From IMG/VR virus record IMGVR_UViG_2513237125_000007, positions 1 through 64,000 of that record: a stretch of DNA of 64,000 bases. One strand, given 5' to 3'. Shown in pieces: positions 7,124-63,131 of this stretch. Each line of letters begins with the position of its first letter. The first letter of the stretch is position 1. A model generated the notes under the pieces. The model did not search any database, was not told the DNA's origin, and saw nothing but the letters and a program-made list of their open reading frames with translations. A program made the translations under genes and the position numbers. Source of the DNA: an uncultured virus (IMG/VR IMGVR_UViG_2513237125_000007). Taxonomy: Duplodnaviria > Heunggongvirae > Uroviricota > Caudoviricetes.

Positions 7124-7831
7124 TTAACCTCCCGCGTACCATTGGTGTTGTCTGTAGGGGTCACTGATATAGGGGTTGCGTGCGTAGGGATCAGCCGTAG
7201 AGGCGTTCCCAAAAGACGCCCCGTTGTTGGTGTGGCGTTGCCGTCCCTCGTACCAGTCATTCAAGGTATTCCCCACACTGGCAAGCATGTTCGTGGTGTT
7301 GTCGGCGCTTCTGTTCGCGGCCCAGCCTTGCGCCTGAGCCGCATTGTTGAACAGGTTGCCCATGTTGGCAGCGTAGTTCTGCCCAAAACCGGCCAGATGA
7401 CTAGAGGCGGCTTGTCCTGCATTAGACATCCCTGCTAATCGGTTCCAGTAGTTGTTAAGGTTCTGCATCGCCAAACCCTGGGCGTAGTTCACAAGGTCCG
7501 CCTGATGCCCGCCGGAGTACAGCGAGCCACGTGCGGCGGCGCTGCGATCCACGCCCTGCAACCCCTGCTGCAACGCGTACGCGTAATCAGGGGAGTTCTG
7601 GAAGCCGGAATAATCGCCATGTAGTACGGCTTGCTGTCCGGCCAGCGCGTTTTGCCCCGCCGTCAGCCAAGGCATCTGGTCCTGCCGTGTCTGGTTGTAC
7701 TGGCGCTGCTGTTCGGCGATCGCCGCCTGGTTGGCCTGTGTTTGTGCATCCGCCGCCCGATGGGCGGAGCGGTTGGAGATAATACTACCGAGGATAGAAC
7801 CCGCCGCAGGAATAAGAGAAGCCCAAGGCAT
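7124..7831 (-). CDS. DNA injection protein (P22 gp7-like)
   Basis: Q/N-rich; FQNSPDY..SAAARGSLYSG motif; gene position. Confidence 0.7.
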   Translation of the reverse strand: MPWASLIPAAGSILGSIISNRSAHRAADAQTQANQAAIAEQQRQYNQTRQDQMPWLTAGQNALAGQQAVLHGDYSGFQNSPDYAYALQQGLQGVDRSAAARGSLYSGGHQADLVNYAQGLAMQNLNNYWNRLAGMSNAGQAASSHLAGFGQNYAANMGNLFNNAAQAQGWAANRSADNTTNMLASVGNTLNDWYEGRQRHTNNGASFGNASTADPYARNPYISDPYRQHQWYAGG

Positions 7832-12560: not shown

Positions 12561-14642
12561 TCATCCTCTCGGGGTTGGCCTGACCGGACCAATACGGACG
12601 CGGCTGTGATCAGCCGGTATCACGCCGTGAGGCGCAGGGCCTTCAGGCATAAAAAAACCGCCTTGCGGCGGTGTGTTGTTTGGGGCCTTAGGAAGCCACC
12701 CAGGATCAACGGCAGGCGCGTTTAAGGCATGCGCAGCCGCCAATGTCTCAATATGCTGTTGTGCGGTGTCGGCCCGTTGATGTTGCGCCCGGGCATCGGA
12801 CAATTCCGCATCCGCCGATAGTTTCTTCACACGGGCTATCTGCATGGGATCGGGCGCAGGCGGCTCCGGAGGTGGCTCGCCGTCTTTCGGAGGGAGCAAG
12901 CCTTGCGCGACAAGTAGCTTATGGAAAGCAGCTACGACTTCCTCCCCGCCGACCAGGTCCATATTCCGCATTCCAGCGTAGGCGGCTACGGTGGCAATTT
13001 GAGGCGCAACGCCGCCCATCTGGGCCGCTAATTGCATCATGGCATCAGCAGCTTCCATGCGTTGCGTGGCGTAGCTTGGGCCCACCGTGACCACCACATC
13101 ATATTTGCCCTGACGGATATCATTCAGGGTGACCGTGTGGCCGGTCGTCGGGTCGGTCACCTGTTGGTACAACTGTTTCCACTTCTCGCCGCCATCTTCG
13201 CCCAGGACACGCACCGCACGCGGCGTATCGTAGACACGAGGAATCATGTCTACGAGGATTTCATAGGTGTAACGCACCGCGTAAGCCAGATTATCAATGT
13301 AGTTAAACGTGGCCACCGCGCCCTGCATTTTGCGGCTGTTGATCGCAATCCCGCTAGTTTCATTACTGCGGGCACCTAGGCTCGCATCGTAAATCCCCGT
13401 GGCGGCTTTCACATCGTCGTTATCCATGCCCGCCAGTTGAATTAAAGCGGTGGGGACCTGGGCCTGTTCGACACGCACAGGCGTGCGACCTTGGCAGTCA
13501 ATGATATTCGCCAACAGATAGGGGAAGTCCTCAGAATGTGAGTCGTTCCACATCTGCACATGCCCCTCTATCATTTTGGGGTCAAGGAGGAAAGGCGCTT
13601 TAGGGGATTTAGCGACCGCTTCAACAAGCGCTGTTCGATGCACGTTATGTAGGCGTTGCTGGTCCTTCCCAAAACGCACCATGCCCGACCAGTAATCACT
13701 GCCATCGATATTCTCGATATTCCCCCATACCGGAACGATGGGGATGAATTGGCAAGGGAATTCGTAAGGCTCCGTCAGCCAGGTGTGCCCATTGGTCAGC
13801 CGCATCAGCACGCGGTGGCCCTCAATGGTGCGTGTACGTACGATCTGCACACCCGCCGACTCTAAAAACGTTTTTGCTTCCTCCACACTCAATCCGGCCT
13901 GCGCGGCGATCTCGTCGGCAAACACCACGCGGCCATCCGACAGGGCCAGCAATTCCCGTTTTCTGGGGTCTTTCCACCAGTATTCGGCAATGCGCACCTG
14001 CCCAGCATCACGCCACGCACCGCACTGTGTATCTGCGTCGAAGTCGGACACATCGGCGTCCGGAAAGCGGCGCTCAAAATCGGTTCTCGGAATCAACTCC
14101 TCAACAAACGCAAAGTTTGCATCGCGCCGGTCAATCTCAACGGCGGCAGGGTCGAATTTCACCGCAAACGGGTTACGTACCGCCTTGATGCGAATATCCT
14201 GCTCAAAATCATCCTCATTGAGATAATCCGTCGTCACGCGCAGCACGCCAAAACCACCCTTGACCGCTTTCTCGTACGCAATGTCGTAGGCGTGATCGGC
14301 ATTGGATACGCTTTCAATATTGCGACAAATCCCCTGCATGATGTCAGCCAGCCCACGGTCCGCTTCTTCCACGCCGCGCACTTTGCAAGAGGGGCGTTGC
14401 TGGCGCATCTCGTTGATCACCTGCTGGGTATGCATGCGCAGCTTGGGAAATTCATATGTCTGACGGTGTCTGCGGCGTTTCTTCAGCGACTCATCCCACT
14501 GGTTCCCAGGGACGGTGACAAACTTAATATCATCTCGCGCCTGGTCGTAAAGATCGCGGCAACAATCACTGGCGAGCTGGTAGCGCGAGCGCATCTGGGC
14601 CAGTGCATCCGTGGTGTTTTTCTGTGTGCGGGGCATCTTCAA
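12561..14642 (-). CDS. Portal protein (P22-like)
   Basis: 693 aa; GNQW, IPIVPVWG, KDQQRLHN, ETSGIAI, GKYDVVVTVGPSYATQR motifs. Confidence 0.9.
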   Translation of the reverse strand: MKMPRTQKNTTDALAQMRSRYQLASDCCRDLYDQARDDIKFVTVPGNQWDESLKKRRRHRQTYEFPKLRMHTQQVINEMRQQRPSCKVRGVEEADRGLADIMQGICRNIESVSNADHAYDIAYEKAVKGGFGVLRVTTDYLNEDDFEQDIRIKAVRNPFAVKFDPAAVEIDRRDANFAFVEELIPRTDFERRFPDADVSDFDADTQCGAWRDAGQVRIAEYWWKDPRKRELLALSDGRVVFADEIAAQAGLSVEEAKTFLESAGVQIVRTRTIEGHRVLMRLTNGHTWLTEPYEFPCQFIPIVPVWGNIENIDGSDYWSGMVRFGKDQQRLHNVHRTALVEAVAKSPKAPFLLDPKMIEGHVQMWNDSHSEDFPYLLANIIDCQGRTPVRVEQAQVPTALIQLAGMDNDDVKAATGIYDASLGARSNETSGIAINSRKMQGAVATFNYIDNLAYAVRYTYEILVDMIPRVYDTPRAVRVLGEDGGEKWKQLYQQVTDPTTGHTVTLNDIRQGKYDVVVTVGPSYATQRMEAADAMMQLAAQMGGVAPQIATVAAYAGMRNMDLVGGEEVVAAFHKLLVAQGLLPPKDGEPPPEPPAPDPMQIARVKKLSADAELSDARAQHQRADTAQQHIETLAAAHALNAPAVDPGWLPKAPNNTPPQGGFFMPEGPAPHGVIPADHSRVRIGPVRPTPRG
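12651..12672 (-). terminator. Terminator-like hairpin inside the 3' end of the portal gene
   Basis: ACCGCCGCAAGGCGGT followed by a T-tract on the minus strand. Confidence 0.5.
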
Positions 14643-16054
14643 TAATCCACCGAGTAATCGTAAACATTAAATGTGGTGGCGTGCGGTGCCTTCGCGTACC
14701 GCCGCATCATCATCGCGTACCGCGTCGCGCTGAGCAGGTCGTCATGCTGTTTGACGATCCGCCCGTCTTCACGGTGGTAGAGCCTGAATTCTTCAAACCA
14801 TTCCGTCAGGTGGCTAAACACCTTCAAACGTCCGGTGTGCATCCGGTCGAGCATCTCAGTGACGCCTGCTTCCAGGCCATTGGTGCCGTCTGTGAATGTC
14901 GCCCGTTCCCCCAGCATGGAAAGCCCTTGCTGCCGGTATTGTTCGGCCAACTGTTCACCGCTGCCCTTGTCGTGTTGCAATCCGTCGTGCGGCCATGCCC
15001 ACGGCAAGCGTGCACCCCAGGGCCTCAATGCCGCCGTGTGAATGACAGGGGTTGCTTCACGCTGGCGGTATGCGCACATCACGTAAAGCACATCGGCTTC
15101 ACGATCCCAGGCCATTTTGACCGCAGCGAACGGGTGGTCATATCCAAAGTCCATCCCGCCAATCAACGCCCATTCTTCAGGAATCGCGAACGGCGCGATG
15201 GCAATCGAGTCCTCCGCGATCGGAAACACGCGGCCACTGCCCAATGAAGGAGTGCCCTTGGTGCGTGCCTCGCGCTCGTGGGCGGGGTAGCTGGCAATGA
15301 TGCGCGCCCGATCCTCAGGGCTGTAATGTTCGGCGTCGTCAATGGTCATCTGCACCAGCCCTCTGTCAGGGGCTTCTTCCAGCAGAAATCGCCGTACCAC
15401 GCTGGACATGCCCTTCAGCGGTGTAAACGTCATAAACACTGGGCCAAAGGTCCGATTGGTCCGAGTGATCCCCTCGAAATACACATCTTCGGGTGGCTCC
15501 TCGTCAAACCACACCCAATCGACCGTATCGGCTTGCCATTTCTCACGGCCCTGATCAAAGGATTTGAGCGAGATCGAACTACGCTCCCCGCACGCATGCC
15601 GCACATACACCGTATCGACCAGTTCAGGCACGCCACGCGCCCAGGTCACGCCCTCAATGCATTCTCCAGGAATCGCGCCTGTCCCCATCTCCGTTTTAGG
15701 ATCGCGCCCTAGCAAAATGCGCTGTACGCCGCGCCGCGTCAGTTCCCCCGTTTCAGAACCCGCCAGGCCGTGATTGGACCTTTCAAAACGTTTGCCCTCC
15801 CACCAGTGCGGATAGCGGCCTGTGAGATGCATCGCCACCTCATGCCCAGCGCACAGTGTCTTTCCTGACTGGTTTGCCGCCGCCAGCAACCGTTCACGCG
15901 TGCCCGCACCCATCGCATGAAAAGCGCGTTGCTTTGGGTATGGGCTGTAGTCGGCCAGACGGTTAGTGCGGCGTCGCCGCGCTTTCTCCTCTAACAACAA
16001 GGCTAATACCTGCTTGGGTGGCATATGCTGCAATGGCGGCATCCAATTCATCAT
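14639..16054 (-). CDS. terL: Terminase large subunit (P22-like)
   Basis: Walker A AANQSGKT, Walker B WFDEEP, nuclease GMDFGYDHP and DDLLSATRY. Confidence 0.92.
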   Translation of the reverse strand: MMNWMPPLQHMPPKQVLALLLEEKARRRRTNRLADYSPYPKQRAFHAMGAGTRERLLAAANQSGKTLCAGHEVAMHLTGRYPHWWEGKRFERSNHGLAGSETGELTRRGVQRILLGRDPKTEMGTGAIPGECIEGVTWARGVPELVDTVYVRHACGERSSISLKSFDQGREKWQADTVDWVWFDEEPPEDVYFEGITRTNRTFGPVFMTFTPLKGMSSVVRRFLLEEAPDRGLVQMTIDDAEHYSPEDRARIIASYPAHEREARTKGTPSLGSGRVFPIAEDSIAIAPFAIPEEWALIGGMDFGYDHPFAAVKMAWDREADVLYVMCAYRQREATPVIHTAALRPWGARLPWAWPHDGLQHDKGSGEQLAEQYRQQGLSMLGERATFTDGTNGLEAGVTEMLDRMHTGRLKVFSHLTEWFEEFRLYHREDGRIVKQHDDLLSATRYAMMMRRYAKAPHATTFNVYDYSVDY

Positions 16055-16603: not shown

Positions 16604-16941
16604 CGCACACCGCAGCGCAACATACGGTCGCGCAACGTGATCCGATTCAAATCCGTATGCAGCCCCGCAATCGCCTGCCTGTCGATCTCACGTAACGCAC
16701 GCAGCCGCGCAATCGCCGCATCTTGATCGCGATTCATCGCAACCTGCGCATCCAACGTGCTTTCCACCGTCGCTAACTGGCCTTCCAGCTGCGCCGCCCG
16801 CTGCGCTAATTGACTGCGCTCGGACCACGCCAGCACCGCATGTGCCACCAGCGCCACCAACGCACCAATCATCATGTACTCAATCAGCAGCCGCACACTG
16901 GGCAAACGTCGCCCCACACGGCGCAGTGTATTAACGATCAT
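16600..16941 (-). pseudogene. C-terminally truncated i-spanin (Rz-like)
   Basis: Nearly identical to 56681..57142 up to NRITLRDR, then diverges and stops after 7 aa; no o-spanin follows. Confidence 0.65.
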
Positions 16942-17260
16942 CCGAACTCCTTCGCCCCGTGCCAAGCTTGGGCACAATCACGTTCTGAATCAGTTCTAAG
17001 GTCTGCGGTGTATCGATTAAACCGGAGGCAATCACCGCCGCCACCGTGAACGCTTGGCTCATCTCCAACCATTCACACACACACATCACAAATAAGCCGA
17101 CAAACCCCGCAATCCCCGCCTCAATCAACACGCGGGAGACGGCCAGCCTCTGCTTAGCGTCCAGTGCACGCATGACGTAACTCAGCGTCCCCGTGGCCAT
17201 CGCCAGGCACACATAAAACGCCTCCTTCCACCAGGCAGGCAGCAGCGAGGGATCAATCAC
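16931..17260 (-). CDS. Holin
   Basis: 109 aa with about three hydrophobic segments; between lysozyme and spanin. Confidence 0.75.
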   Translation of the reverse strand: MIDPSLLPAWWKEAFYVCLAMATGTLSYVMRALDAKQRLAVSRVLIEAGIAGFVGLFVMCVCEWLEMSQAFTVAAVIASGLIDTPQTLELIQNVIVPKLGTGRRSSDDR

Positions 17261-17753
17261 GGCGGCCCTTGCTCTTCAAAGCGGCACGCTGTTTCTCCGC
17301 TTCGGCACGCCAGTCACCATCTTCAAATAACACACGTTCGGCGGCACGCCTGACAATTAAACCCGACTGCACACGACCACCCGCCCATTTCCACACATGA
17401 AATTGCTCCAACGCGCCAGCCACATCACCGGCATTGAGCCGCTTTAGCAAGGTCGAGCGATGAAACGCCCCCGCACCAATGTTGAAGCTCAGCGATACCA
17501 ACGCATCAAACTGCTGTTGCTTGAGTGGCACACGCACATAACGCCGCACCGCTGGCTCAAATTCTTTCGCTAAGCGTGCACGTAACATCGCATCGGCTTC
17601 CTGCTCATTGGCAAGAGACATATCAGGCGTCACATGCTTGCCCGTCTCGCCGTAGCCAATCGTCAACACCCCCCCAGGACAGGTGTACGTGCTCAGCTTG
17701 CAACCCTCAAAAAACTTGATCAGTGCAATGCCTTCTTCACCAATGGTCTGCAT
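17253..17753 (-). CDS. Endolysin, GH24 lysozyme
   Basis: [34 protein letters not shown] motifs. Confidence 0.92.
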   Translation of the reverse strand: MQTIGEEGIALIKFFEGCKLSTYTCPGGVLTIGYGETGKHVTPDMSLANEQEADAMLRARLAKEFEPAVRRYVRVPLKQQQFDALVSLSFNIGAGAFHRSTLLKRLNAGDVAGALEQFHVWKWAGGRVQSGLIVRRAAERVLFEDGDWRAEAEKQRAALKSKGRRD

Positions 17754-17772
17754 GGGGGGGACTCCAGAACGC

Positions 17773-17835
17773 AAAAAACCGCCCGAAGGCGGTCGCTGGC
17801 TTTGAATAAAAAAGCCCTGCTGAGATGGGCAGGGC
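17773..17835 (-). terminator. Two tandem intrinsic terminators (17808-17835, 17773-17793), tR'-like
   Basis: GCCCTGC..GCAGGGC-T6 and ACCGCCTTCGGGCGGT plus T-tract, between Q and the lysis genes. Confidence 0.75.
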
Positions 17836-17879
17836 GCGAGTAAATCATTCGATGAGGGCATCGCACCACTCAGGCGCGT

Positions 17880-17917
17880 ACAGTAGGGGGGAAAGTGCGG
17901 AGGTATCAACTCCGCAC
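17880..17917 (-). promoter_or_regulatory. Late promoter, pR'-like (TTGATA-18-TACTGT)
   Basis: Immediately after the Q stop and upstream of the tandem terminators; the -35 box is bracketed by the inverted repeat GTGCGGAG/CTCCGCAC. Confidence 0.55.
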
Positions 17918-18639
17918 TACGCAGCCTCTACCTGCAACGCCTCTTGAAGCTCCCTAGCCGCTTGGCGTTCAGCACTACGCATCTTGTTAAGTAACCACTC
18001 GTACACGCCACACCACACCCTGCGATAGGCAGCCTCATCACGGCCAATCGCTGCCGCCCGACGGCGATCACTCACCGGCAGCATTCCCCTGCCACCGCAC
18101 GCCATGCACACCTTCACCAACGCCCCTACGCGCACGGTCCCCCGACCGTGGCACGTCGGGCAATCACGCGGCTGAGACAGCTCGTTCACCACCGCCGCAA
18201 CCAGGACCGGCAGCATCTCCAATGTCGCTTGTGGCCATAGCTGTGCCTTGGCCTCCTCCAGCCGCTCCTCCGCACGCCTCAGCGCAGCCTGCTGTGCGCT
18301 TGTCGTCGCTCGGGTCCACCCCATGCACGCCTTGGCTATGCCCACGTCTGTACGCGCTTCCAGCAAGCGCTGCTGCTGCCGTCGAATCTCCGGCACCACC
18401 AACGCCACCGCCGCATCGCGCAAGGGGCCACGCCGCAACACCGCACCATCCGGCCACCAGCACGCCTCCAGTACCTCACGCCCCAACCCCGCTGGGGTGA
18501 GCGCTAAGGCATGGGCAATGTCCTGTGCCGTCAGCTCAGGCACTCCACCAGGCAGCGTGTCATAGCGCACGGTGCTCGGGTTCAAACGCGCCAGTAAGCG
18601 GCGCGGATTGGGGTGTTGAAAAAGTCCTGTTGTTTGCAT
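17917..18639 (-). CDS. Late antiterminator Q (lambda-Q-like, Zn finger)
   Basis: CPTCHGRG..CMACGGRG zinc finger; upstream of promoter, terminators and lysis genes. Confidence 0.75.
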   Translation of the reverse strand: MQTTGLFQHPNPRRLLARLNPSTVRYDTLPGGVPELTAQDIAHALALTPAGLGREVLEACWWPDGAVLRRGPLRDAAVALVVPEIRRQQQRLLEARTDVGIAKACMGWTRATTSAQQAALRRAEERLEEAKAQLWPQATLEMLPVLVAAVVNELSQPRDCPTCHGRGTVRVGALVKVCMACGGRGMLPVSDRRRAAAIGRDEAAYRRVWCGVYEWLLNKMRSAERQAARELQEALQVEAA

Positions 18640-18779
18640 TCGGAAATACCCAGCTGCGAGAAAGCGTGGGACTAGTATAACCCATTGATTATAAAGAAGA
18701 TTATTGGGTGATGCAGCGGCGCTTGCTTCCGTCGGAGGGGCAGTGGCTGGATGTACGGGCGCGAAAGTGCTGAGGACTG

Positions 18780-19026
18780 TTTGCACCTTGCACCGCTTTC
18801 ACCCCCCCTAAAAGCGAAAAGCTATATATATATATATATATCTGTAATTTCTAATCCAACATATAGAAAAAGGGGTTTAAAAGGAGGTGCAAGGTGCAAA
18901 AATTAGTTCCATATTTTTTTCGTTTACAACTAAGTAGCATAAAAGTTGGCTAAAAGGAGGTGCAGGAGGTGCAGAGGGTGTAAACCGCCCTCAGCACTCT
19001 GCAATAGCTATTGCGAAAGCGCTGAG
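18780..19026. other. Putative replication origin 1
   Basis: 15-bp inverted repeat TTTGCACCTTGCACC/GGTGCAAGGTGCAAA around an AT-rich core with (TA)9; further GGTGCA repeats; downstream of the primase gene. Confidence 0.6.
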
Positions 19027-19045
19027 TGGGACGCAGCCCGCGTTA

Positions 19046-21583
19046 CTAGAAGGGATCAGTGTTCAACAACCTTACCCCTTGGATGGCTACGAACCTACGG
19101 CGCTTCCCCCCTTCGGGGGTTTCGTATATATCTTTCTTCTTAAACTCCGGCACACGCCGCTCCAAATCGCCAATGAAACGGACTTTGGATAGTGGGTGAA
19201 CGCCGCTGGCTTTGCACCATTGCGTATAGGCTGGGTACAAGCCATCACCCATCGGCGTAGTTAGTTTCTCCTCATACTCGGCTCCTTTCTCACATTCTTC
19301 GTCGATGAACTGCCCTACGCGGTCCTGTTCCTCCTTGTATTCCTCCGAAGCGGCCAACACGATATCAGGCGGCCTCAGTCCGTTCTTGTACCACTCCACG
19401 GCACCGGCCACGATCCACGCTAAGACACCTTCTCGTTCAGCGGCCAGCTTCTCAGCGATCCTCATATCCCGAGGATACTTGCCGTTGCCGGTCTCTTCCC
19501 CCTCAACGGCATCAAACTTCGCTTTAAACGGGATGAGCATAATGCGCCTCCAGATGCCGCTGTCCTGCCCCTTGATGACAGGCTTATGGTTGGTGAGTAA
19601 TTGCAGCTTGTGCGTGGGCTGGAACTCGAAGAATTCACCGTACAAGTAACGGGCCTTGAGCGCATCGCCGCCAGTGGCTTGTTTCACGAACTCTTCCCGC
19701 AACACTTCGCCCTCCCCTGATTCGTGGGTAGTCACCATGCGCCGCCCGAAAAGGTCGGCAACGGCGTTAGGGTGTTGTTGGCCGTTCTTGCCTGTGAGCA
19801 GCCCTGGGGCGGCCACGCCCGCATAGCGGCCAAGAATCCCCGAGATTAGGTCCAGTAGCGTGCTTTTACCGTTATTACCACCATCTCCGTACAGCACAGC
19901 GAACTTCTGTTCGCGTACCGAGCCGGTGACGCAGTAGCCGAACCAGCGTTGCAGGAAGTCACTGAGTGGCTTGCCAGCCTGCCCCTCTTCGCAGGTAATG
20001 CGTTCTAGTGTCTTTTTAAAGACAGGCGCGGGGGCGTTTGGATTGTAGTTAAGGGGAACGACCCGCGTAATGCAATCTTCACGGCGGTGCGGGGACAGCT
20101 CCCCCGTGCGTAAGTCCACGGTGCCATTGGCGCAGTTCAATAGCCAAGGGTTGTTATCTAGTCGATGTGGTCCTACGGTGAGGTGGTTCGTAGCCCATTC
20201 CACTGCTGCTTTCAGCCTGGAGGTTGATTCGGACTGTTTAGCCCATTTATACAATGTGGCAGCTTTTTTATCGTCTTTTTCTTGCGCTGCTTGTTCTGCT
20301 TCGTAACGGATGGCGTTCGGGAATTCGCCTATTACTTGGAACGCTTCGGCCTTGCCCTTCTTCCAATATTCCCCGTTCCAGGTGTACCAATCACCGGCAA
20401 CAAGCATTAGCTGTTTTCCGTAGTACTTAACGATGCGAGCACCGTTCGCTTTATCCGTTGTCAGCTCCTTTGATGTGGCGAGTCCACTAATAATCATGTC
20501 GTCCGTGGGGGTGTGTTCTGTCGTGGTCACGCCGAACATGTTCACATCCATTTCGCCTATTCCGCGGTCTAATACTTCTTCCTCGGCATAGTTCACCCCG
20601 TTTAGAAATTCTTCTTGCGACCTATTGCGGCAATGGGCGTGCTGGCACACAAACGCGCCATTGGCATAGCCTCCGGTATGCGCGGGGTAGTACACCGTGG
20701 CTGTGGGGTTAGAGGCTTGCGTATGGTGTGCTTCGAATGGGCAGGTGATGAACAGCTGTCCTTCTTTACCTGTGGAGAGGACCGTCCAGTTGTGCGCGAG
20801 ATGCACAGCCACGGGATCGTTAGCCGCCGCAGCCATGAGCTTGTGTTGGCGGCTGGGTTTGCCTTCACTCTTGGCACTTTCCAATATCTCTGCATCAATC
20901 TCCAGCAATACAGAATCCTCAAGAAGGCCTTTCACAAAGCCGCTACGCACTGGCACCGGATCGGCCACACCGGCTTCAAACACAGGGGCGGCGGTGTAGT
21001 GGATTTGCACCGTATTAAATACAGAAGCGTCCAGGGCTGGAGCGCAGGCAGTGGCCCAGGCTTTGAGCTGTGCGCTGGTATACGGTGTATGTAGCCAGAA
21101 CCATACATGAGCCTTTAGCTTCCCTTCACTCCCAGGCCGCCCCGCGCTACTGGATAACTGCCAATGGTAATCCGCACCTGCGAACCAGAACGGGAGATGT
21201 GCGTGGAGGAACTCGCTGATGCTCCCCACCGGATCGGCGACCGGATCAAGGCGCAGTGGCTCGAAGTTATCGATCTCAACGAGCATCCAGTGATGCGGGA
21301 TATCCTCGTACAGCTCGGCAATGCGCCGTACTTTTCCTTTCTGGAACTCTGTATCCAGCGCAGCGGCTTTGGCATCGCCCACATACACGCCACGGATCAC
21401 ACAGGCATGCCGGTTATTCTCCAGCTCCGTGAGGAGTGCAGACAGCTCGCGGCTATTGTTGAGCGGTCGTTGCTCCACCTGGAAGAACTTGGCGTTGTCG
21501 TAGGCTTTCACCGTGCCATCAGCGCACCATGTTTTGGCGAGGGTATTTACGGGGTGTTTCAGGAGTGTGATAGAATCACTCAT
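19046..21583 (-). CDS. P4-family/D5 primase-helicase
   Basis: SF3 helicase GDGGNNGKST, KQATGGD, TNHKP, GIWRR; D5_N LLNCANGTVDLRTG; C..H/CQHAHC zinc motif. Confidence 0.9.
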   Translation of the reverse strand: MSDSITLLKHPVNTLAKTWCADGTVKAYDNAKFFQVEQRPLNNSRELSALLTELENNRHACVIRGVYVGDAKAAALDTEFQKGKVRRIAELYEDIPHHWMLVEIDNFEPLRLDPVADPVGSISEFLHAHLPFWFAGADYHWQLSSSAGRPGSEGKLKAHVWFWLHTPYTSAQLKAWATACAPALDASVFNTVQIHYTAAPVFEAGVADPVPVRSGFVKGLLEDSVLLEIDAEILESAKSEGKPSRQHKLMAAAANDPVAVHLAHNWTVLSTGKEGQLFITCPFEAHHTQASNPTATVYYPAHTGGYANGAFVCQHAHCRNRSQEEFLNGVNYAEEEVLDRGIGEMDVNMFGVTTTEHTPTDDMIISGLATSKELTTDKANGARIVKYYGKQLMLVAGDWYTWNGEYWKKGKAEAFQVIGEFPNAIRYEAEQAAQEKDDKKAATLYKWAKQSESTSRLKAAVEWATNHLTVGPHRLDNNPWLLNCANGTVDLRTGELSPHRREDCITRVVPLNYNPNAPAPVFKKTLERITCEEGQAGKPLSDFLQRWFGYCVTGSVREQKFAVLYGDGGNNGKSTLLDLISGILGRYAGVAAPGLLTGKNGQQHPNAVADLFGRRMVTTHESGEGEVLREEFVKQATGGDALKARYLYGEFFEFQPTHKLQLLTNHKPVIKGQDSGIWRRIMLIPFKAKFDAVEGEETGNGKYPRDMRIAEKLAAEREGVLAWIVAGAVEWYKNGLRPPDIVLAASEEYKEEQDRVGQFIDEECEKGAEYEEKLTTPMGDGLYPAYTQWCKASGVHPLSKVRFIGDLERRVPEFKKKDIYETPEGGKRRRFVAIQGVRLLNTDPF

Positions 21584-21721
21584 ACGTTGAGTCCACCTTT
21601 GTTTTGGGCGAGTTGAGGCCACCCCCTCAGCCCGCCCTTTTTTAACTGCGGGGGTGGTTTAACGATTTGAAAGTCACTCCTTACTAATTAAGGAGTACGG
21701 CCAGACAGACAGCCGCAGGTG

Positions 21722-22321
21722 TTAGCTGAAGCGGCGATAAGTAACCCCCCTGACCTTTTGGGCAGCCTGTTCCATCTGAGGGCCGAGGGCCTTCTCTATA
21801 GGGCCAACGCCGCCGTGCAGGCCATCTAGCAGACGGTCGTAAAGCGCCCCGCTCATCTGCCTAGCCCCAAGCCATGCTAGGGCTTGCGGAACCTTGTTGG
21901 TGAATACCGTTTCATGCAGCGACTTGAATTGGCTGCACAGAATCCAGATGGCGTAAAGCACATCGTCATTCACCAGCGTTCCGGTAGCCGAATAGCCCCC
22001 CGTCTTGCGGATCGAGGGAAGGACTTCCGAGGTTACCCACTTGGAGAATTTACGTGCTTCTGGCTTTCTGGAGCGGAGTACCAAGGCGTATAGGCCCGAC
22101 TCGGAAATGATGTTGGTAGGAACCCCTAACGGGGCGTTAGGGGTAGGAATCTCAATGGTGGCGCGCTCATCGGAATCTAGATGATCCCCAAGAGCCTTGC
22201 TTGTGTTGGAGTAATTCAGCGCCCTGCAAACATCGCCAGCAATGAACCACGGATTGCCATCGCGCATCACAACGCGCACAGCGTGAGAATGAAAGTCGAA
22301 CGGGATAATGGACTGCGCCAT
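21722..22321 (-). CDS. Bro-N antirepressor-family protein
   Basis: FDFHSHAVR..PWF..DVC..ISESGLYALVLRSRKPEARKFSKWVTSEVLPSIRKTG; AGGAG RBS. Confidence 0.85.
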   Translation of the reverse strand: MAQSIIPFDFHSHAVRVVMRDGNPWFIAGDVCRALNYSNTSKALGDHLDSDERATIEIPTPNAPLGVPTNIISESGLYALVLRSRKPEARKFSKWVTSEVLPSIRKTGGYSATGTLVNDDVLYAIWILCSQFKSLHETVFTNKVPQALAWLGARQMSGALYDRLLDGLHGGVGPIEKALGPQMEQAAQKVRGVTYRRFS

Positions 22322-22384
22322 GAGAACGTCTCCTGCTTTTGAGAGGTGATCTCGGGGAGACGTTTCTAAGCGCCGACCCGAGAA

Positions 22385-22465
22385 TGTCGGGAGGTTAGAA
22401 ACCGGAAAGCAGACCGGCCAGCAGCTTTCCCCTTGCGGGTGTTGTATCGCTGCTGCCTCCCGACG
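22385..22465 (-). ncRNA. C4/CI-like antisense RNA, allele 1
   Basis: GTCGGGAGG..CCTCCCGAC closing stem; exposed CTGCTTT and GTTTCTAA are complementary to paired targets upstream (22516-22536) and downstream (22333-22369, over the RBS). Confidence 0.8.
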
Positions 22466-22550
22466 TAAAAACGTACGGGCACAAAAAATCCGCGAGCTGA
22501 CGAGTGCGGATACCGCTGCTTTCTCGGAGTTTCTAAGCTCCTTACCAGCG

Positions 22551-22579
22551 ACGGTACCGCAGCCACGTACAGTGGTCAA
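22551..22579 (-). promoter_or_regulatory. Promoter of C4 module 1 (TTGACC-17-TACCGT)
   Basis: Both hexamers and the spacing are conserved at 62749-62777. Confidence 0.65.
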
Positions 22580-22581
22580 GC

Positions 22582-22965
22582 TCACGACACAGTCCGAGCC
22601 ATGCGCGCTTGCAAGGTTTCTAAGCCTTTTACTGCGGCAATGAACTCACGTTGCAACTGTGCCGCTTCATCATCAGGGTTCAATGGCTGTGGTTCTGTGT
22701 AACCGGCATCGCGCGCTTCGTAGTGCGCCAAGATATGCACTCCCGCCTTGCGGGCTTCTATCCGGATCGAACGTAATTCGCTCAGGTCGAGCTTTTCCCG
22801 TTTATTAGGGTTGAGACACGAGGCCAACTTGCGGCCTGCGTCATCGGCAGGCATGTCAGGCCACAGCATATTCCCTACTTTCTTGAATCCGCCAAGGGCG
22901 GTCACGCAATCGTGGATCACATCCTCGTAAGAGTAATAAAACAACGTGTTTTGCAGGCTTGTCAC
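22582..22965 (-). CDS. CII-like regulatory protein (putative)
   Basis: HTH-like GGFKKVG..LNPNKREKL; downstream of cro. Confidence 0.5.
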   Translation of the reverse strand: MTSLQNTLFYYSYEDVIHDCVTALGGFKKVGNMLWPDMPADDAGRKLASCLNPNKREKLDLSELRSIRIEARKAGVHILAHYEARDAGYTEPQPLNPDDEAAQLQREFIAAVKGLETLQARMARTVS

Positions 22966-23052: not shown

Positions 23053-23382
23053 TTAGTTAGAAACCTGATGCTTCTTCAAATCTTCTGCTTGCTTATGGAT
23101 CATCAAAAAATTCACTTCGCTTTCAAGCATCTCTATTTGCTCGCTGATTTCTCGTTTTCTGGAAAAAACAGCTTCTTGATTAGTTATAGCCATACGTTGG
23201 AGGTCCAAAGTGTTCGTAAGCAAGTCTGAAACTGCGTCAAGTAAAAATGAGATTCGACGCTCCAACTCCGCTGCGCTAATGGGTGCTTCTTCTGGCGTAA
23301 TGATCTTTTCGCTGACAGGGGGAGCGGTACCCGGTAGAACATTTATCTTCGTAACGGGGTTTATTTCTTCCTCATGCTGCAT
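23053..23382 (-). CDS. Hypothetical coiled-coil protein
   Basis: ORF overlapping the cro 3' end, preceded by AGGAGG. Confidence 0.5.
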   Translation of the reverse strand: MQHEEEINPVTKINVLPGTAPPVSEKIITPEEAPISAAELERRISFLLDAVSDLLTNTLDLQRMAITNQEAVFSRKREISEQIEMLESEVNFLMIHKQAEDLKKHQVSN

Positions 23383-23590
23383 CAGGCACCTCCTGCCTGT
23401 GATTTGTGGGGGTTTCACCGAAGATGTCGGGGCGGCGAAGCCTCCATATTTCGGGGATACCTCGGTACTTCCAGTTCTGCACGCGCTGCGTACCGCCTGC
23501 ACGTGGGTCTATTCCAAGTTGTCTGGAAATTTCAGCGGGGCCGCCAAGGCGGTTGATCAGGTCCGCATCTGGGTGTGTGGTCGTGTACAT
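23372..23590 (-). CDS. cro: Cro-like repressor
   Basis: LINRLGGPAEISRQLG..VQNWKYRGIP HTH; divergent from cI. Confidence 0.75.
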   Translation of the reverse strand: MYTTTHPDADLINRLGGPAEISRQLGIDPRAGGTQRVQNWKYRGIPEIWRLRRPDIFGETPTNHRQEVPDAA

Positions 23591-26563: not shown

Positions 26564-26836
26564 ATGTCGTCTTTTGTGCCGACAGAGTCGCCGATGCGTT
26601 CGGAAAGGGTTAACGACTTTACGAACAACCTAAAAGTACTAACAGGCGTGGAGCATTTCACCCCTTTAGAAACCGAGTTGATAGCACGCCTTGCCGTCTT
26701 GCTAGAAGACTACGAAGAGGTGCGTGACGCACTGCATATCGCACATTCAAAACTGCTGGACCACGGGATTAGCACCTGCGGCGCAAGTGAACAACACAGC
26801 GAAACGAAGTACCCCCTACACGAGAAACACCTATGA
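26564..26836 (+). CDS. Hypothetical protein (paralogue of the next gene)
   Basis: AAGGAG RBS; FTPLETELIARL..LEDYE. Confidence 0.6.
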   Translation: MSSFVPTESPMRSERVNDFTNNLKVLTGVEHFTPLETELIARLAVLLEDYEEVRDALHIAHSKLLDHGISTCGASEQHSETKYPLHEKHL

Positions 26837-41095: not shown

Positions 41096-41369
41096 TCAGA
41101 AAGGCTTCCTGTAGCCGTTTGTAGTTACGCAGGCTGAAGGTTTCTAAGGCTTCGGGGGCCACTTCCAGAAGGTTGGAAAAGAGGCGCAATTCGCGTTCGC
41201 CTTCGTTGCCTGGGAGTGCAAAGGAGCGTTTCATATCCCCTGCGGTCGGTTCGCGCATCCATAGTTCATTGACGGTGGCCCCGTTGATGCTGACGGGTGA
41301 GGCGAAGGTGATGTGTACGCCGCCTTCTGCTTCGCGGAGGTACGGTTTATCCGTGGTCGGTCCGGTCAT
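41082..41369 (-). CDS. Tail assembly chaperone (gpE-like)
   Basis: L.MREPT.GD..NL..Y.RLQ.AF; between tube and tape measure genes. Confidence 0.82.
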   Translation of the reverse strand: MTGPTTDKPYLREAEGGVHITFASPVSINGATVNELWMREPTAGDMKRSFALPGNEGERELRLFSNLLEVAPEALETFSLRNYKRLQEAFLIFIE

Positions 41370-56784: not shown

Positions 56785-57142
56785 CGCTGTGTTGCTCCAA
56801 ATGTGTGATGCGCTGCCGCAATGCCCGGTCGCGCAACGTGATCCGATTCAGATCAGACTGCAAACCCGACATCGCGCGGCTGTCAATCTCCCGTAAAGTG
56901 CGTAACCGTCCAATTGCAGCGTCTTGCTCCATGTTGATCGCGACCTGCGCATCCAACGTGCTTTCCACCGCCGCTAACTGGCCTTCCAGCTGCGCCGCCC
57001 GCTGCGCTAATTGACTGCGCTCGGACCACGCCAGCACCGCATGTGCCACCAGCGCCACCAACGCACCAATCATCATGTACTCAATCAACAGCCGCACACT
57101 GGGCAAACGTGTTGCGACGCGACGCAGTGTATTAACGATCAT
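56681..57142 (-). CDS. i-spanin (Rz-like)
   Basis: N-terminal TM plus coiled coil. Confidence 0.75.
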   Translation of the reverse strand: MIVNTLRRVATRLPSVRLLIEYMMIGALVALVAHAVLAWSERSQLAQRAAQLEGQLAAVESTLDAQVAINMEQDAAIGRLRTLREIDSRAMSGLQSDLNRITLRDRALRQRITHLEQHSDEAKAFLDRDVPDVLGCLLDGGSCQASHPHAKPR

Positions 57143-57461
57143 CCGAACTCCTTCTCCCACCCCCCACTTTGGGGACTATGAAGCTTTGAATTAGGTCTAA
57201 ACTGGCAGAGGCTCCAAGCCAACCAAACACCCCCACAGTGACGGCTGTCAGTTGCTGGCTTAACTCCAGAGACTCACACACCCACATCGCAAACAGCCCC
57301 ACCAGCCCCGCCGCACTGGCTTCGATCAGCACACGCGCCCAGGTTGGTTTCTCACCGTTGTCTAGAGAACGCATCAGGTAGCCAAGTATCCCTGCCACCA
57401 TCGCAAGGCACGTGTAAAACGCTTCTTTCCACCAGGACATCATGCTCGAGGGATCAATCAC
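57132..57461 (-). CDS. Holin
   Basis: Three hydrophobic segments; GWLGA motif; lysis cassette position. Confidence 0.78.
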   Translation of the reverse strand: MIDPSSMMSWWKEAFYTCLAMVAGILGYLMRSLDNGEKPTWARVLIEASAAGLVGLFAMWVCESLELSQQLTAVTVGVFGWLGASASLDLIQSFIVPKVGGGRRSSDDR

Positions 57462-57948
57462 GGCGACCCTTTAAAGCAGCACGCCGTTGCTTCTCTTCAG
57501 CACGCCAGTCACTGCCTTCAAACAATGCACGTTCGGCGGCACGTCTGATGATTAAACCCGACTGGATACTGCCCCCCGCCCATTTCCACACATGAAACTG
57601 CTCCGCCGCACCAGCCACATCACCGGCATTGAGCTTGCGTAACAGCGTCGAGCGGTGGAACGCACCCGTACCAATGTTGAAGCTCAACGACACCAACGCA
57701 TCAAACTGCTGTTGCTTCAGTGGCACACGCACATAACGCCGCACCGCCGGTTCAAACTCTTTGGCTAATCGAGCACGTAACATCGCATCCGCTTCCTGCT
57801 CATTGGCAAGACACATATCAGGCGTCACATGCTTGCCCGTCTCGCCGTAGCCAATCGTCAACACTCCACCAGGACAGGTGTACGGGTTCAACTTGCAACC
57901 CTCAAAAAATTTGATCAGTGCAATGCCTTCTTCACCAATGGTCTGCAT
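57454..57948 (-). CDS. Endolysin, GH24 lysozyme
   Basis: Nearly identical to 17253..17753. Confidence 0.92.
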
Positions 57949-58532
57949 GACACGTCCCGGAGACATTCATTGCCGCTCATCCTGCGCGTCTCCTCGGCGC
58001 ACGTCCTGTGACAGGTTTTCCGTGACGGGTGCCAGGGACTACCCCCAGCGAAATTCCTGACGTGCCTGACACTGATCCCAAATATCGCGGCAATGACATC
58101 CAAGGGCACACCACGACGCAAAAGCCCCACAACTGCACAATCCCGCGCATGGCGGGCAATGCAATTGCAATTGGCTGGCTGCAAAATCTCCCCACCGAAA
58201 ACATCCACCAGCTTTTGTGCATCCCCCCATCCCAGAATGGATACCAATCGGTGATGGGGTGACAAAACCTTAGGGACATACAAAATCACCTTGCCACTGC
58301 GGCGGCCTTTGGGATACGTACGCGGCAACTGACCAATCAGGGTTAACGCTTGCTCCCGTCCGATGACATCCGCCAACTCCTGCACACTGGCAGGCAACCT
58401 GGTAGCAACGGCGGGCCTCACCCCAACCCCTACCGCATCCCCACATCTCGCAACGGAGGGCTTCCCACCCAAGGACAAACGCGCCAGCAAGCGAGGCGGA
58501 TTGGAGCGTTGCAGAAAGCATGTTGTTTGCAT
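57915..58532 (-). CDS. Mor/C-family-like late transcription activator (N-terminus resembles the Q start)
   Basis: [21 protein letters not shown]...FGGE..RD..C-terminal [17 protein letters not shown]. Confidence 0.7.
58003..58021 (-). promoter_or_regulatory. Late-promoter motif copy upstream of the lysis genes
   Basis: GGAAAACCTGTCACAGGAC. Confidence 0.65.
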
Positions 58533-58677
58533 TGGTCACTCACCCATCACAAAAAAACATGGGAACTAGTATAACCCATTGATTGTAAAGAAGATTATTG
58601 GGTGATGCGGTGGCGCTTGCTTCCGTCTGTGTGGCAGTGGCTAGCTGTACGGGCGCGAGAATGGGGTGACTATTAAG

Positions 58678-59006
58678 GGGTGCACTAGCCACACTGTTAT
58701 TCGGGTCAATTTCCTATTTCTCCCTATATACGCTGTATATTTTTTATACAATGAGTTGGGACGGATAATAGAAAAACATAGGCAGAAACAGTGAGGGTAG
58801 TGCAACCTTGCACTTAATGCACTTCAAAAACGTGCAATTTCCTGTTAACCCCCGTGTATGGTGTACATATTTTATACAACGAGTTTAGATTGATATCGCA
58901 AAACGCAAGTGTAAGAAGTGCAGGGGTGCGACTGTAGGCGGTGCGGCTTTAACACCCTACAAACCCTCGGCATCTCGCTAACAGCCATTTGCGAGATGCC
59001 GAGGGC
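58678..59006. other. Putative replication origin 2
   Basis: AT-rich with several GTGCA/TGCAC repeats and a long hairpin at 58964-59006; same position as ori 1. Confidence 0.55.
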
Positions 59007-59022
59007 GCTGTACTTCTTTTCG

Positions 59023-61560: not shown

Positions 61561-61692
61561 TATTCTCCTTTATTCAGGGCGAGTTGAGGTCACCCCCTCA
61601 GCCCGCCCTTTTTTAACTGCGGGGGTGGTTTAGTGATTTGAAAGTCACTCCTTACTAATTAAGGAGTACGGCCAGGTAGCCCGCCGGAGGCG

Positions 61693-62520
61693 TTAGCTAA
61701 AACGGCGATAAGTAACCCCCCTGACCTTTTGGGCAGCCTGTTCCAGGTGCGGGCCGAGGGCTTTTTCTGAGAACGCTTTACTCATGCGCTCGATCGCGGC
61801 TTTTGCGATATCTGGTAGATGCTTGCTTGGAAACGTTGGGTGTCTGACCCAATCGGCTACTTCGTCGCTAGTAAGAACATTGGTATGCAGCGTGACGGGT
61901 GTCAGCCGTAGCCTGAAGTCATGATCGAAATCCAATACCCAGCGATGCCATCTCAATAGTTCGACGAGTGCTGATGTGGCAATGGCTTCACTATCTTCCA
62001 ACCCTTTTGGGAATTCAGGCTCTTTTATTCCTGCGGACTCAAGTAGCCGTCTGACATCGCTAATCCAACGGCTATGAGCGGTGTTTAACTCCTCCATATG
62101 CTTACGGTCTTTGGAGTAGCTGCGCATCTGGTCGTATCCCAGATCAGGATGAACTGTGTACTCGCACGTCTTGCGGATCGAGGGGAGGACTTCCAACACA
62201 TCCAGCACCCAGCGACGAAACGCGGCGGCGACTGAAGTACGGGCAAACATCGCCACCAGGTGGCAGCCGCGAGGGCTGAAGAGTCGGACAGGTTTGTCTG
62301 AGTTGCCGCTTCCAAACCCCTTGGTGGCCAAATTGACCACCAAGGTCATTTGATAGGTGAACTCGTCGGAATGACGGTTGTAGATACGTGAAACGGATCG
62401 TTCATCGGCGTAGCCAAGCGCTCGGGCCAGATCGGCAGCCGTCAAGTACGGCATACCGTCACGGTCGATAATGGAAAGGGATTGGCCGGAAAAACACACG
62501 GCAGCAGGTAACTGCGTCAT
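61693..62520 (-). CDS. Bro-N-like antirepressor-family protein
   Basis: LTAADLARALGY..IYNRHSDEF..RLFSPRGCHLVAMFART..AFRRWVLD; AGGAG RBS. Confidence 0.8.
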   Translation of the reverse strand: MTQLPAAVCFSGQSLSIIDRDGMPYLTAADLARALGYADERSVSRIYNRHSDEFTYQMTLVVNLATKGFGSGNSDKPVRLFSPRGCHLVAMFARTSVAAAFRRWVLDVLEVLPSIRKTCEYTVHPDLGYDQMRSYSKDRKHMEELNTAHSRWISDVRRLLESAGIKEPEFPKGLEDSEAIATSALVELLRWHRWVLDFDHDFRLRLTPVTLHTNVLTSDEVADWVRHPTFPSKHLPDIAKAAIERMSKAFSEKALGPHLEQAAQKVRGVTYRRFS

Positions 62521-62583
62521 AAAACGTCTCCTGTTTCGTGAGATGACCACAGGAGGAACGTTCTTAGGCGCCGCACCTGTGGG

Positions 62584-62664
62584 TGTCGGGAGGCTAAGAA
62601 ACCGGAAACAGACGGCGGGCAGCTTTCCCCTTGCGGGTGTTGTATCGCTGCCGCCCTCCCGACG
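62584..62664 (-). ncRNA. C4/CI-like antisense RNA, allele 2
   Basis: Same scaffold as allele 1; exposed CTGTTTCC and TTCTTAG match targets at 62716-62734 and 62531-62567. Confidence 0.8.
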
Positions 62665-62748
62665 TAAAAACGTGCAGGCGTAAAAAAACCGCATGGATTT
62701 CGGATGCGGGTACCGCTGTTTCCAGAGTTCTTAGGCTCCTTACCGGCG

Positions 62749-62777
62749 ACGGTACCGCAGCGGTGAATGTGGGTCAA
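62749..62777 (-). promoter_or_regulatory. Promoter of C4 module 2 (TTGACC-17-TACCGT)
   Basis: Conserved with 22551-22579. Confidence 0.65.
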
Positions 62778-62876
62778 GCTCACGGTGTCACCGTGACTGT
62801 CGGCGAAGAAGCGCCTGCCCCTTGGTTGTTTTATGATGGGAACGCCAACATCCATCACACTGCAAGGAGAACACCG

Positions 62877-63131
62877 TTGAAGGTAGGCACCGTCCGCGCG
62901 ATGAATCCACGAAGAGGGATGCTTGTTATAGAGATTGATGGGTACGGCCATTTTTCAATCTTTGAGATACTTGACGGCGTCGATATCAAGATCGGCGATG
63001 AAGTCAGAGGAAAGCTGGACACCACAGGCAGCCAGAAGCTCATGCATTCGGCCAGCCAACGCTGGTTTGATGTCTATGGGGAAGGCGGGTACGCCAGACT
63101 CGAATCTGCATGCAAGTCCATCGGACTCTAG
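62877..63131 (+). CDS. Hypothetical moron protein (84 aa)
   Basis: AAGGAG RBS before a TTG start; opposite strand to the flanking operon. Confidence 0.55.
   Translation: MKVGTVRAMNPRRGMLVIEIDGYGHFSIFEILDGVDIKIGDEVRGKLDTTGSQKLMHSASQRWFDVYGEGGYARLESACKSIGL

Follow-up and report, generated by a model that had tools for sequence, protein, structure and literature searches.

Two RNA modules precede two Bro-N genes

The window analysed here is the first 64 kb (64,000 nucleotides) of the 77.7-kb IMG/VR provirus record IMGVR_UViG_2513237125_000007, and it contains two related prophage blocks. In each block a non-coding module on the minus strand, made up of a small structured RNA and two pairs of short segments complementary to it, stands in front of a gene with a Bro-N domain; this module is the subject of the analysis. 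We denote the two exposed segments of the RNA a' and b', their upstream complements a1 and b1, and their downstream complements a2 and b2. The original prediction had described a promoter, a target pair, a terminator hairpin, an RNA and a second target pair over the ribosome-binding site, followed by a Bro gene and a primase gene. This anatomy is borne out on the minus strand in both copies, termed alleles 1 and 2.

Allele 1
22551..22579, minus strand: promoter-like element read from the sequence, TTGACC (22579-22574), 17 nt, TACCGT (22556-22551)
22516..22536, minus strand: upstream target pair, b1 TTAGAAAC (22536-22529) and a1 AAAGCAG (22522-22516)
22483..22511, minus strand: leader hairpin (22511-22489) and U6 run (22488-22483), a putative IsrK-like leader terminator
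22378..22464, minus strand: sRNA-Xcc1 RNA, 87 nt (Rfam RF02221, 67.7 bits, E 4.2e-10)
22322..22369, minus strand: downstream target pair and ribosome-binding region, b2 TTAGAAAC (22369-22362) and a2 AAAGCAG (22339-22333)
21722..22321, minus strand: Bro-N (antirepressor-like) gene, 199 aa (Pfam Bro-N, E 8.5e-26)

Allele 2
62749..62777, minus strand: promoter-like element read from the sequence, TTGACC (62777-62772), 17 nt, TACCGT
62716..62734, minus strand: upstream target pair, b1 CTAAGAAC (62734-62727) and a1 GAAACAG (62722-62716)
62682..62709, minus strand: leader hairpin CCGCAT/ATGCGG with a 9-nt loop (62709-62689) and U7 run (62688-62682)
62577..62663, minus strand: sRNA-Xcc1 RNA, 87 nt (Rfam RF02221, 82.3 bits, E 1.4e-13)
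62521..62567, minus strand: downstream target pair and ribosome-binding region, b2 (62567-62560), a2 (62537-62531), then GGAG
61693..62520, minus strand: Bro-N gene, 275 aa (Pfam Bro-N, E 3.5e-8)

The order of the elements is identical in the two alleles, and the allele 2 module spans 62777 to 62520. In allele 1, a' reads CTGCTTT (22412-22406) and b' reads GTTTCTAA (22402-22395); b1 falls, in the predicted fold, within the loop of a GGAG/CTCC hairpin. The GGAG of the ribosome-binding region begins with the final G of a2, and the ATG follows at 22321, 11 nt past a2. Allele 2 exposes CTGTTTC (a', 62611-62605) and TTCTTAG (b', 62600-62594), its targets are CTAAGAAC and GAAACAG, and its ATG at 62520 lies 10 nt past a2. 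Compound targets, defined as b followed after 3-30 nt by a, occur twice per allele on the minus strand, compared with 0.00 and 0.01 occurrences expected from 100 shuffles. In both alleles merely 18-19 nt separate the U-run from the 5' stem of the RNA, which makes it unlikely that there is room for a promoter of the RNA's own. The promoter-like elements are kept in all 8 rows of the 25-module alignment (see below) that resemble Xylella phage Xfas53, and they presumably act as promoters.

The RNA belongs to the sRNA-Xcc1 family

At Rfam gathering thresholds the window gives exactly two matches, both to sRNA-Xcc1 (RF02221; gathering score 53 bits) and both covering model positions 1-87 of 87. The RNA had been predicted to be a cloverleaf; it folds as a three-way junction, not with four arms. 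In minimum-free-energy and centroid folds, with which the Rfam consensus agrees, both RNAs consist of a 9-bp closing stem and two hairpins. The long hairpin contains an invariant ATACAA...ACCCGCAAGGGGAA core and the short one displays a' in an 8-nt loop; b' occupies a single-stranded junction of 6-7 nt in either allele. The minimum free energy is -41.3 kcal/mol for allele 1 (z -3.86) and -37.6 kcal/mol for allele 2 (z -1.91). The founding member of the family, from Xanthomonas campestris, is described as a stable RNA of ~100 nt on Northern blots and 88 nt by rapid amplification of cDNA ends (PMC2996969), and transcripts of Xylella homologues have been detected (PMC12189769).

Exposed segments and targets change together

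For a comparison within the clade, we aligned 25 distinct modules: two from the window, three that are units of Xfas53, and 20 from IMG/VR. At the upstream sites 98.9% of the cells are paired, and 10 of 16 pairs and 78 cells have changed on both sides; the covariation value of 0.496 compares with 0.157 after shuffling and is reached in none of 500 shuffles. The downstream sites are paired in 94.2% of the cells, with 10 of 16 pairs and 77 cells changed on both sides and a covariation of 0.518 versus 0.175 shuffled (0/500 shuffles reach it), and they tolerate G-U cells (UG:1 at two pairs). When the structure is slid by 1-3 columns, the paired cells amount to 24-48% upstream and 34-47% downstream. 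Because allele 1 served as the template for the pairing structure, the proportion of cells paired is biased upwards, but two-sided changes cannot arise in this way. These changes show that a' and b' pair with a1 and b1 and with a2 and b2, in cis or in trans; covariation of sites cannot tell the one from the other.

The variation is concentrated in the pairing segments. Entropy per column is 0.70 bits in the 16 a'/b' columns, 0.12 in the other 64 columns of the RNA and 0.44 in the rest of the non-coding leader. With 11 variants of a' and 10 of b', each assorting independently of the other, the 25 modules reach 19 distinct (a', b') codes; the a' segment CTGTATCC, for example, is found with five different b'. 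A constant scaffold whose exposed segments and targets change together is the pattern that selection for distinct specificities would produce. The co-variation of RNA and target letters, which had been proposed from the two alleles, is thus strong among the 25 modules, and it holds across a wider set of 194 loci.

The arrangement is a property of the family

A search for exact copies of the invariant core returned at least 106 stretches in viral contigs and at least 121 in prokaryote genomes. There were 220 instances with enough flank, of which 217 parsed and 3 did not; removal of duplicates and of parses with a b junction >11 nt left 194 loci of the matches listed. For a' and b' separately, we recorded at each locus the longest stretch of exact complementarity in the 200 nt on either side. 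Complements of at least 6 nt are present at all four sites in 114 of the 194 cognate loci (59%) versus 1.37% of 37,442 non-cognate RNA-flank pairings; at a minimum of 7 nt, the corresponding figures are 56/194 and 0.25%. The loci contain 134 distinct a' loops. From the end of a2 to the start codon of the next open reading frame (ORF) the distance is 7-11 nt in 100 of the 151 loci where both could be called. In 138/194 loci a run of at least six T occurs in the 90 nt that precede the RNA, with 18/194 having it further upstream and 4/194 downstream, and a1 lies 5' of the T-run in 129/130 loci (median 27 nt). The positions of a1, of the T-run and of a2 indicate that the order promoter, targets, terminator, RNA, targets, ribosome-binding site is a property of the family and is not specific to the window.

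We scanned 184 downstream ORF fragments against Pfam (E <= 0.001). An antirepressor-type N-terminal domain was found in 84 of them: Bro-N in 26/184, Rha in 15/184, KilA-N in 13/184, P22_AR_N in 12/184, and AntA and ORF6N in 9/184 each. Further assignments were HTH (4/184), the SymE toxin domain (3/184), Integrase (1/184) and Replisome organiser (1/184). Among the matches listed, sRNA-Xcc1 occurs in Alpha-, Beta-, Gamma- and Deltaproteobacteria and a few other phyla, and of 5,426 complete E. coli genomes, 161 contain a match to one module type.

The three genes with a SymE toxin domain (from Xanthomonas arboricola, a Lysobacteraceae metagenome-assembled genome and a Lysobacter metagenome-assembled genome) are preceded by the full four-site arrangement, with a2 ending 8-9 nt before the start. 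At these three loci sRNA-Xcc1 probably acts as an RNA antitoxin of symE, judging from the pairing sites; the available text of a 2025 integron paper left the mechanism of symE-associated sRNA-Xcc1 open (PMC12444791). Five copies from Xanthomonas spp. have a varying a' (CTATGAG, CTATGTA, CTACTAG, CTACGTG) that the upstream a1 and b1 follow; in the same five, no matching a2 or b2 was found before a conserved downstream ORF of 88-89 aa. Three other complete proviruses have 3, 4 and 2 dispersed sRNA-Xcc1 matches, of which 3, 3 and 1 exceed the cut-off, so one phage can hold several such locks at different genes.

Tandem arrays carry different codes

The nearest phage record is that of Xylella phage Xfas53 (GQ421471), which is 79.1% identical in DNA over 54% of the 901 nt compared. 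Its gene order is that of the window: CI, two small genes, module(s), bro-N and a P4-family primase. Each window prophage has one module; Xfas53 has three tandem ones of ~380 bp. Three units annotated as 'repeat_region' at 13655-14688 are three complete RNA modules, scoring 76.6, 69.6 and 71.1 bits with the sRNA-Xcc1 model, and each comprises a promoter-like element, b1-a1, a hairpin with T-run, the RNA, b2-a2, a Shine-Dalgarno sequence and an ATG. Two full ~380-bp units end in a 5' fragment of bro, and the third continues into the complete bro-N gene. The a' codes of the three units all differ (CTGTTTC, CTATGTC, CTACTTC). The annotation of these repeats as 'repeat-encoded proteins' gp20 and gp21 is probably wrong.

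One IMG/VR record contains five tandem modules, with RNAs at 7577, 8261, 8643, 9024 and 9407 and all codes different. The last four are spaced 381-383 bp apart, and the first has no a2 site. This spacing resembles that of five clustered 'sXF' RNAs of Xylella fastidiosa Temecula1 (PMC12189769). Within the arrays, every unit closes with a bro gene fragment of the allele 2 type, its first ~115 nt. That units with almost the same scaffold bear distinct codes suggests that they diversified after duplication or else that modules were captured from other phages. We offer, tentatively and as a possibility rather than an expectation, that a' and b' form a two-part combinatorial immunity code and that the arrays constitute a heritable repertoire of antisense RNAs, each with a matching decoy, to silence or escape the antirepressor and replicase operons of several heteroimmune rivals. 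If this were true, the Xfas53 'repeat-encoded proteins' and the five Xylella 'sXF' RNAs would be such arrays, neither protein genes nor plant-directed small RNAs. So variable a two-part code would, moreover, be a natural source of numerous RNA-target pairs, which may be orthogonal, and would allow prophage immunity groups to be predicted from sequence alone.

Relation to known antisense-RNA systems

In phages P1 and P7, c4 RNA silences the antirepressor by pairing with sites at the ribosome-binding site of icd; in P1 it is processed from a longer precursor by RNase P. The immI region of P1 and P7, as Citron & Schuster reportedly described it in 1990 (cited in PMC7313666 and PMC4825925), comprises c4 with a1 and b1 upstream, a2 and b2 over the icd ribosome-binding site, and then ant. 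Like immI, the window modules have a structured RNA that exposes two segments, each of which finds complements on both sides along one strand; their downstream pair sits at the ribosome-binding site of the gene that opens an antirepressor-like operon, and specificity resides in few letters. They differ from P1/P7 c4 in scaffold, having the elaborate ATACAA...ACCCGCAAGGGGAA hairpin, and no icd-like upstream ORF was seen in them. They also precede Bro-N and P4-type primase genes, and the operon they stand in is a lambdoid early one rather than part of a plasmid prophage.

In Gifsy-1 of Salmonella (Hershko-Shalev et al. 2016, PMC4825925), most transcription from the isrK promoter stops at a terminator and yields short IsrK, and read-through yields a translationally inactive isrK-orf45-anrP mRNA together with a processed ~80-nt RNA, STnc1160, complementary to IsrK. 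Supplied in trans, short IsrK turns translation on. The window modules resemble this isrK-orf45(STnc1160)-anrP layout in their promoter-like element, putative short leader with a terminator-like hairpin, RNA of similar length probably derived from read-through, and antirepressor-like gene. Unlike Gifsy-1, they have no isrK or C4 match in Rfam, the first ORF past the RNA is Bro-N, and no orf45-like ORF overlapping the RNA was seen. AntQ toxicity, the outcome in Gifsy-1, has no counterpart shown in the window. In P4, the CI RNA causes premature termination by pairing with the sites seqA and seqC that flank it (PMC4825925). Common to P4 CI and the window are an RNA processed (in the window, probably) from an untranslated leader, flanking complementary sites, an operon with a P4-family primase and a terminator (in the window, a putative one) near the upstream site. 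The modules differ from P4 CI in that no sequence or Rfam relation was shown and in that P4 acts by premature termination whereas the downstream site in the window is at the ribosome-binding site; termination control could possibly operate in the window modules too. The layout agrees, as had been proposed for P1 c4 and P4 CI, with both of these and also with Gifsy-1 IsrK/STnc1160.

With sRNA-Xcc1 of Xanthomonas campestris the window RNAs share family membership by covariance-model score and the same three-way junction. The literature, in the portions available, presents sRNA-Xcc1 as a trans-acting, virulence-linked small RNA and in those portions describes neither cis target pairs nor a c4-type role (PMC2996969, PMC12189769, PMC12444791, PMC7313666). 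The five Xanthomonas copies described above differ from the window modules in being matched at the upstream pair only. The RNA family and the regulatory logic are each already known. No paper was found that ties sRNA-Xcc1 to c4-type logic in a search that did not extend to Chen et al. 2011 and Summer et al. 2010; among the papers listed that name both c4 antisense RNA and Xcc1, the two appear next to each other as RNAs without relation.

A c4-type lock and its alternatives

We consider it probable, with good though not complete confidence, that each prophage carries a c4-type antisense-RNA lock (of the P1 c4 or Gifsy-1 IsrK type) on an sRNA-Xcc1 scaffold. A weak promoter would start a leader that contains the decoy sites b1 and a1. 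Most transcripts would probably end at the hairpin and U-run, giving a short IsrK-like leader RNA; read-through transcripts would hold the 87-nt RNA, which is probably excised in the manner of P1 c4 and Gifsy-1 STnc1160. The a' loop and b' junction of this RNA would pair with a2 and b2 on the mRNA, a pairing shown by the covariation, where a2 ends at the Bro-N Shine-Dalgarno sequence. Pairing would keep Bro untranslated, and polarity would probably lower expression of the downstream primase-helicase; that the module controls the primase at all we infer from gene order alone. The leader b1-a1 is likewise able to pair with a' and b' and would, as a decoy, titrate or autoregulate the RNA. In register, 6-8 of 8 positions form Watson-Crick pairs at each of an RNA's own four sites; between alleles, a' differs by a one-base shift and b' at three positions. 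With different a' and b' letters, and with its own four sites matching it, each RNA should act best on its own phage.

Several results weigh against this reading. When RNA and target come from different alleles, each site retains 4-6 paired positions out of 8, and naive RNAduplex energies separate cognate from non-cognate combinations poorly, allele 2 RNA giving -16.8 with its own downstream target and -16.2 with that of the other allele. We dropped these energies as evidence on orthogonality, as the differences are small or inconsistent because the method opens stems and uses other registers. The original prediction had proposed a check with the Rfam C4 and c4-a1b1 models, which fails, the RNA belonging to sRNA-Xcc1 instead: C4 (RF01695) reached 21.8 bits (E 0.098) on allele 1, under its gathering score of 45 bits, and had no match to allele 2 at E <= 10, and at the same cut-off the regions 22200-22700 and 62400-62900 matched none of c4-a1b1, c4-2 (RF02944) and isrK (RF01394), the leader itself having no Rfam family match. 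The sub-threshold C4 alignment nevertheless falls on this very RNA and runs through closing stem, hairpin, loop and junction in matching succession, so the C4 and sRNA-Xcc1 RNAs look alike in architecture. The promoter and terminator hairpin that had been predicted are there as TTGACC, 17 nt, TACCGT and as a hairpin with U-run, but TACCGT is merely -10-like, the putative terminator stems have loops of 9-12 nt, and in neither allele was the promoter called by a sigma-70 consensus scan or the hairpin by a terminator consensus scan; moreover, the leader folds no better than shuffled sequence.

Expression and the wider family add to these points. RNA-sequencing matches came from 3 small RNA runs of one study with 6% of the sampled words, besides unrelated raw-read runs, and alignment of a raw-read run placed no reads on the stretch. 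The contigs are 90-99% alike over parts and then diverge into unlike sequence, so that they derive from relatives and are silent on the expression of these alleles. Among the 194 loci, 80 have no match of at least 6 nt at one or more sites, and 91 of the 184 downstream ORF fragments, many merely 45-75 aa long, gave no Pfam family. In addition, the 5' untranslated regions of both Bro genes self-fold with the Shine-Dalgarno sequence paired (22326-22363 and 62521-62562, minus strand). In that of allele 1, ACGTCTCC (22363-22356) can pair with GGAGACGT (22333-22326), at -23.7 kcal/mol (z -2.77). Bro mRNA may by this folding be closed by default, like the long isrK-anrP transcript. Because the Shine-Dalgarno sequence is already sequestered in cis, the sign of the RNA effect, repression, is an assumption taken from P1.

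The RNA codes might be what lets both phages coexist, as the original prediction had it. An alternative to which we give an even chance is that the codes are not the cause: unrelated CI repressors would provide heteroimmunity, and the difference in code would reflect diversity of the family. The CI repressors of prophages 1 and 2 are 25% identical over the S24 domain and their N-terminal parts do not align, so the phages are probably heteroimmune anyway and the RNA codes would not be required for coexistence; with 134 a' loops in 194 loci, moreover, any two members nearly always differ. Against this, a difference in both layers, CI and RNA code, also fits selection on each, and in P1 and P7 heteroimmunity and coexistence are credited to small ImmI differences (PMC6906374), a precedent by which small differences in code can suffice.

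The lock itself could be a purely cis-acting leader switch, in which the ~260-nt region toggles a' and b' between a1/b1 and a2/b2, never acting in trans and conferring no RNA immunity between phages. All pairing partners do lie on one transcript, the isrK locus of Gifsy-1 is described as forming alternative structures (PMC4825925), and the covariation fits cis as well as trans pairing. Such a switch would not, however, need variable codes on a constant scaffold. The excess of variation in a', b' and their targets over the scaffold (0.70 versus 0.12 bits), with 19 codes in 25 modules, would be a product of selection against cross-talk, which is relevant solely if the RNA acts in trans; arrays bear 3 to 5 different codes, and the founding member is a stable processed RNA (PMC2996969). 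We therefore judge this switch improbable. A good deal less probable still is that the RNA is mainly a trans-acting virulence small RNA directed at host or plant, its local complementarity being incidental. Papers report positive control by HrpG/HrpX and many predicted targets (PMC2996969, PMC12189769, PMC12444791), but the complementarity at four local sites co-varies, the distance of the site to the start codon is fixed and the module precedes antirepressor-type genes in prophages of many phyla. A 2025 proposal has sRNA-Xcc1 delivered to plants in vesicles; if sRNA-Xcc1 is a c4-type lock on antirepressor and symE toxin genes, the virulence interpretations and annotations need revisiting.

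Covariation would equally fit a co-evolving protein-operator pair, since a reverse complement is the same double-stranded DNA site, and the three b...a copies could in principle be operators for a DNA-binding protein, one of them inverted, and not RNA partners. We rejected this reading, the least credible of those considered, on spacing and RNA context. The distance between b and a differs among the copies (6, 3 and 23 nt), which is unsuited to a bipartite protein site; the middle copy sits exactly in the loop and junction of a structured RNA scored by Rfam; G-U cells are tolerated; and the interval from a2 to the start codon is constant.

Neighbouring genes

The two prophage blocks, 16625-22586 and 56826-62784, have the same orientation, lie ~40.2 kb apart and are 78-90% identical in DNA by self-comparison of the window. 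The lysozyme gene, the primase gene, the 3' end of Bro and the RNA module are conserved at this level, and the Bro N-domains are merely 30% identical. Pfam assigns a Bro-N domain to both genes behind the modules, and the Xfas53 homologues carry the RefSeq label anti-repressor. The primase-helicases are 71% identical. Beyond the modules, the relevant genes are these:

19046..21622, minus strand: allele 1 primase-helicase (P4-type) with D5_N, DUF5906 and Pox_D5 by Pfam, 858 aa
59023..61560, minus strand: allele 2 primase-helicase with D5_N, DUF5906 and Pox_D5 by Pfam, 845 aa
23644..24354, plus strand: prophage 1 CI-like repressor (Pfam Peptidase_S24, E 2.3e-12), divergent from the early minus-strand genes
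64611-65381 of the record, outside the window: prophage 2 counterpart of CI, by its S24 repressor domain

The RNA module had been envisaged as acting on top of a lambdoid CI/Cro switch. An S24 CI-like repressor does lie nearby, but no Cro was identified: neither 23053-23502 nor 22582-22965, nor the first early ORFs of prophage 2, gave a Pfam family.

The b target of allele 1, TTAGAAAC, occurs in 7 copies in the window versus 0.86 expected. A third copy on the RNA-target strand (22623-22616, minus strand) lies within the ORF 22582-22965 directly upstream of the module, and the other extra copies are at 23057-23064 (plus strand), 26666-26673 (plus strand) and 41140-41147 (minus strand).

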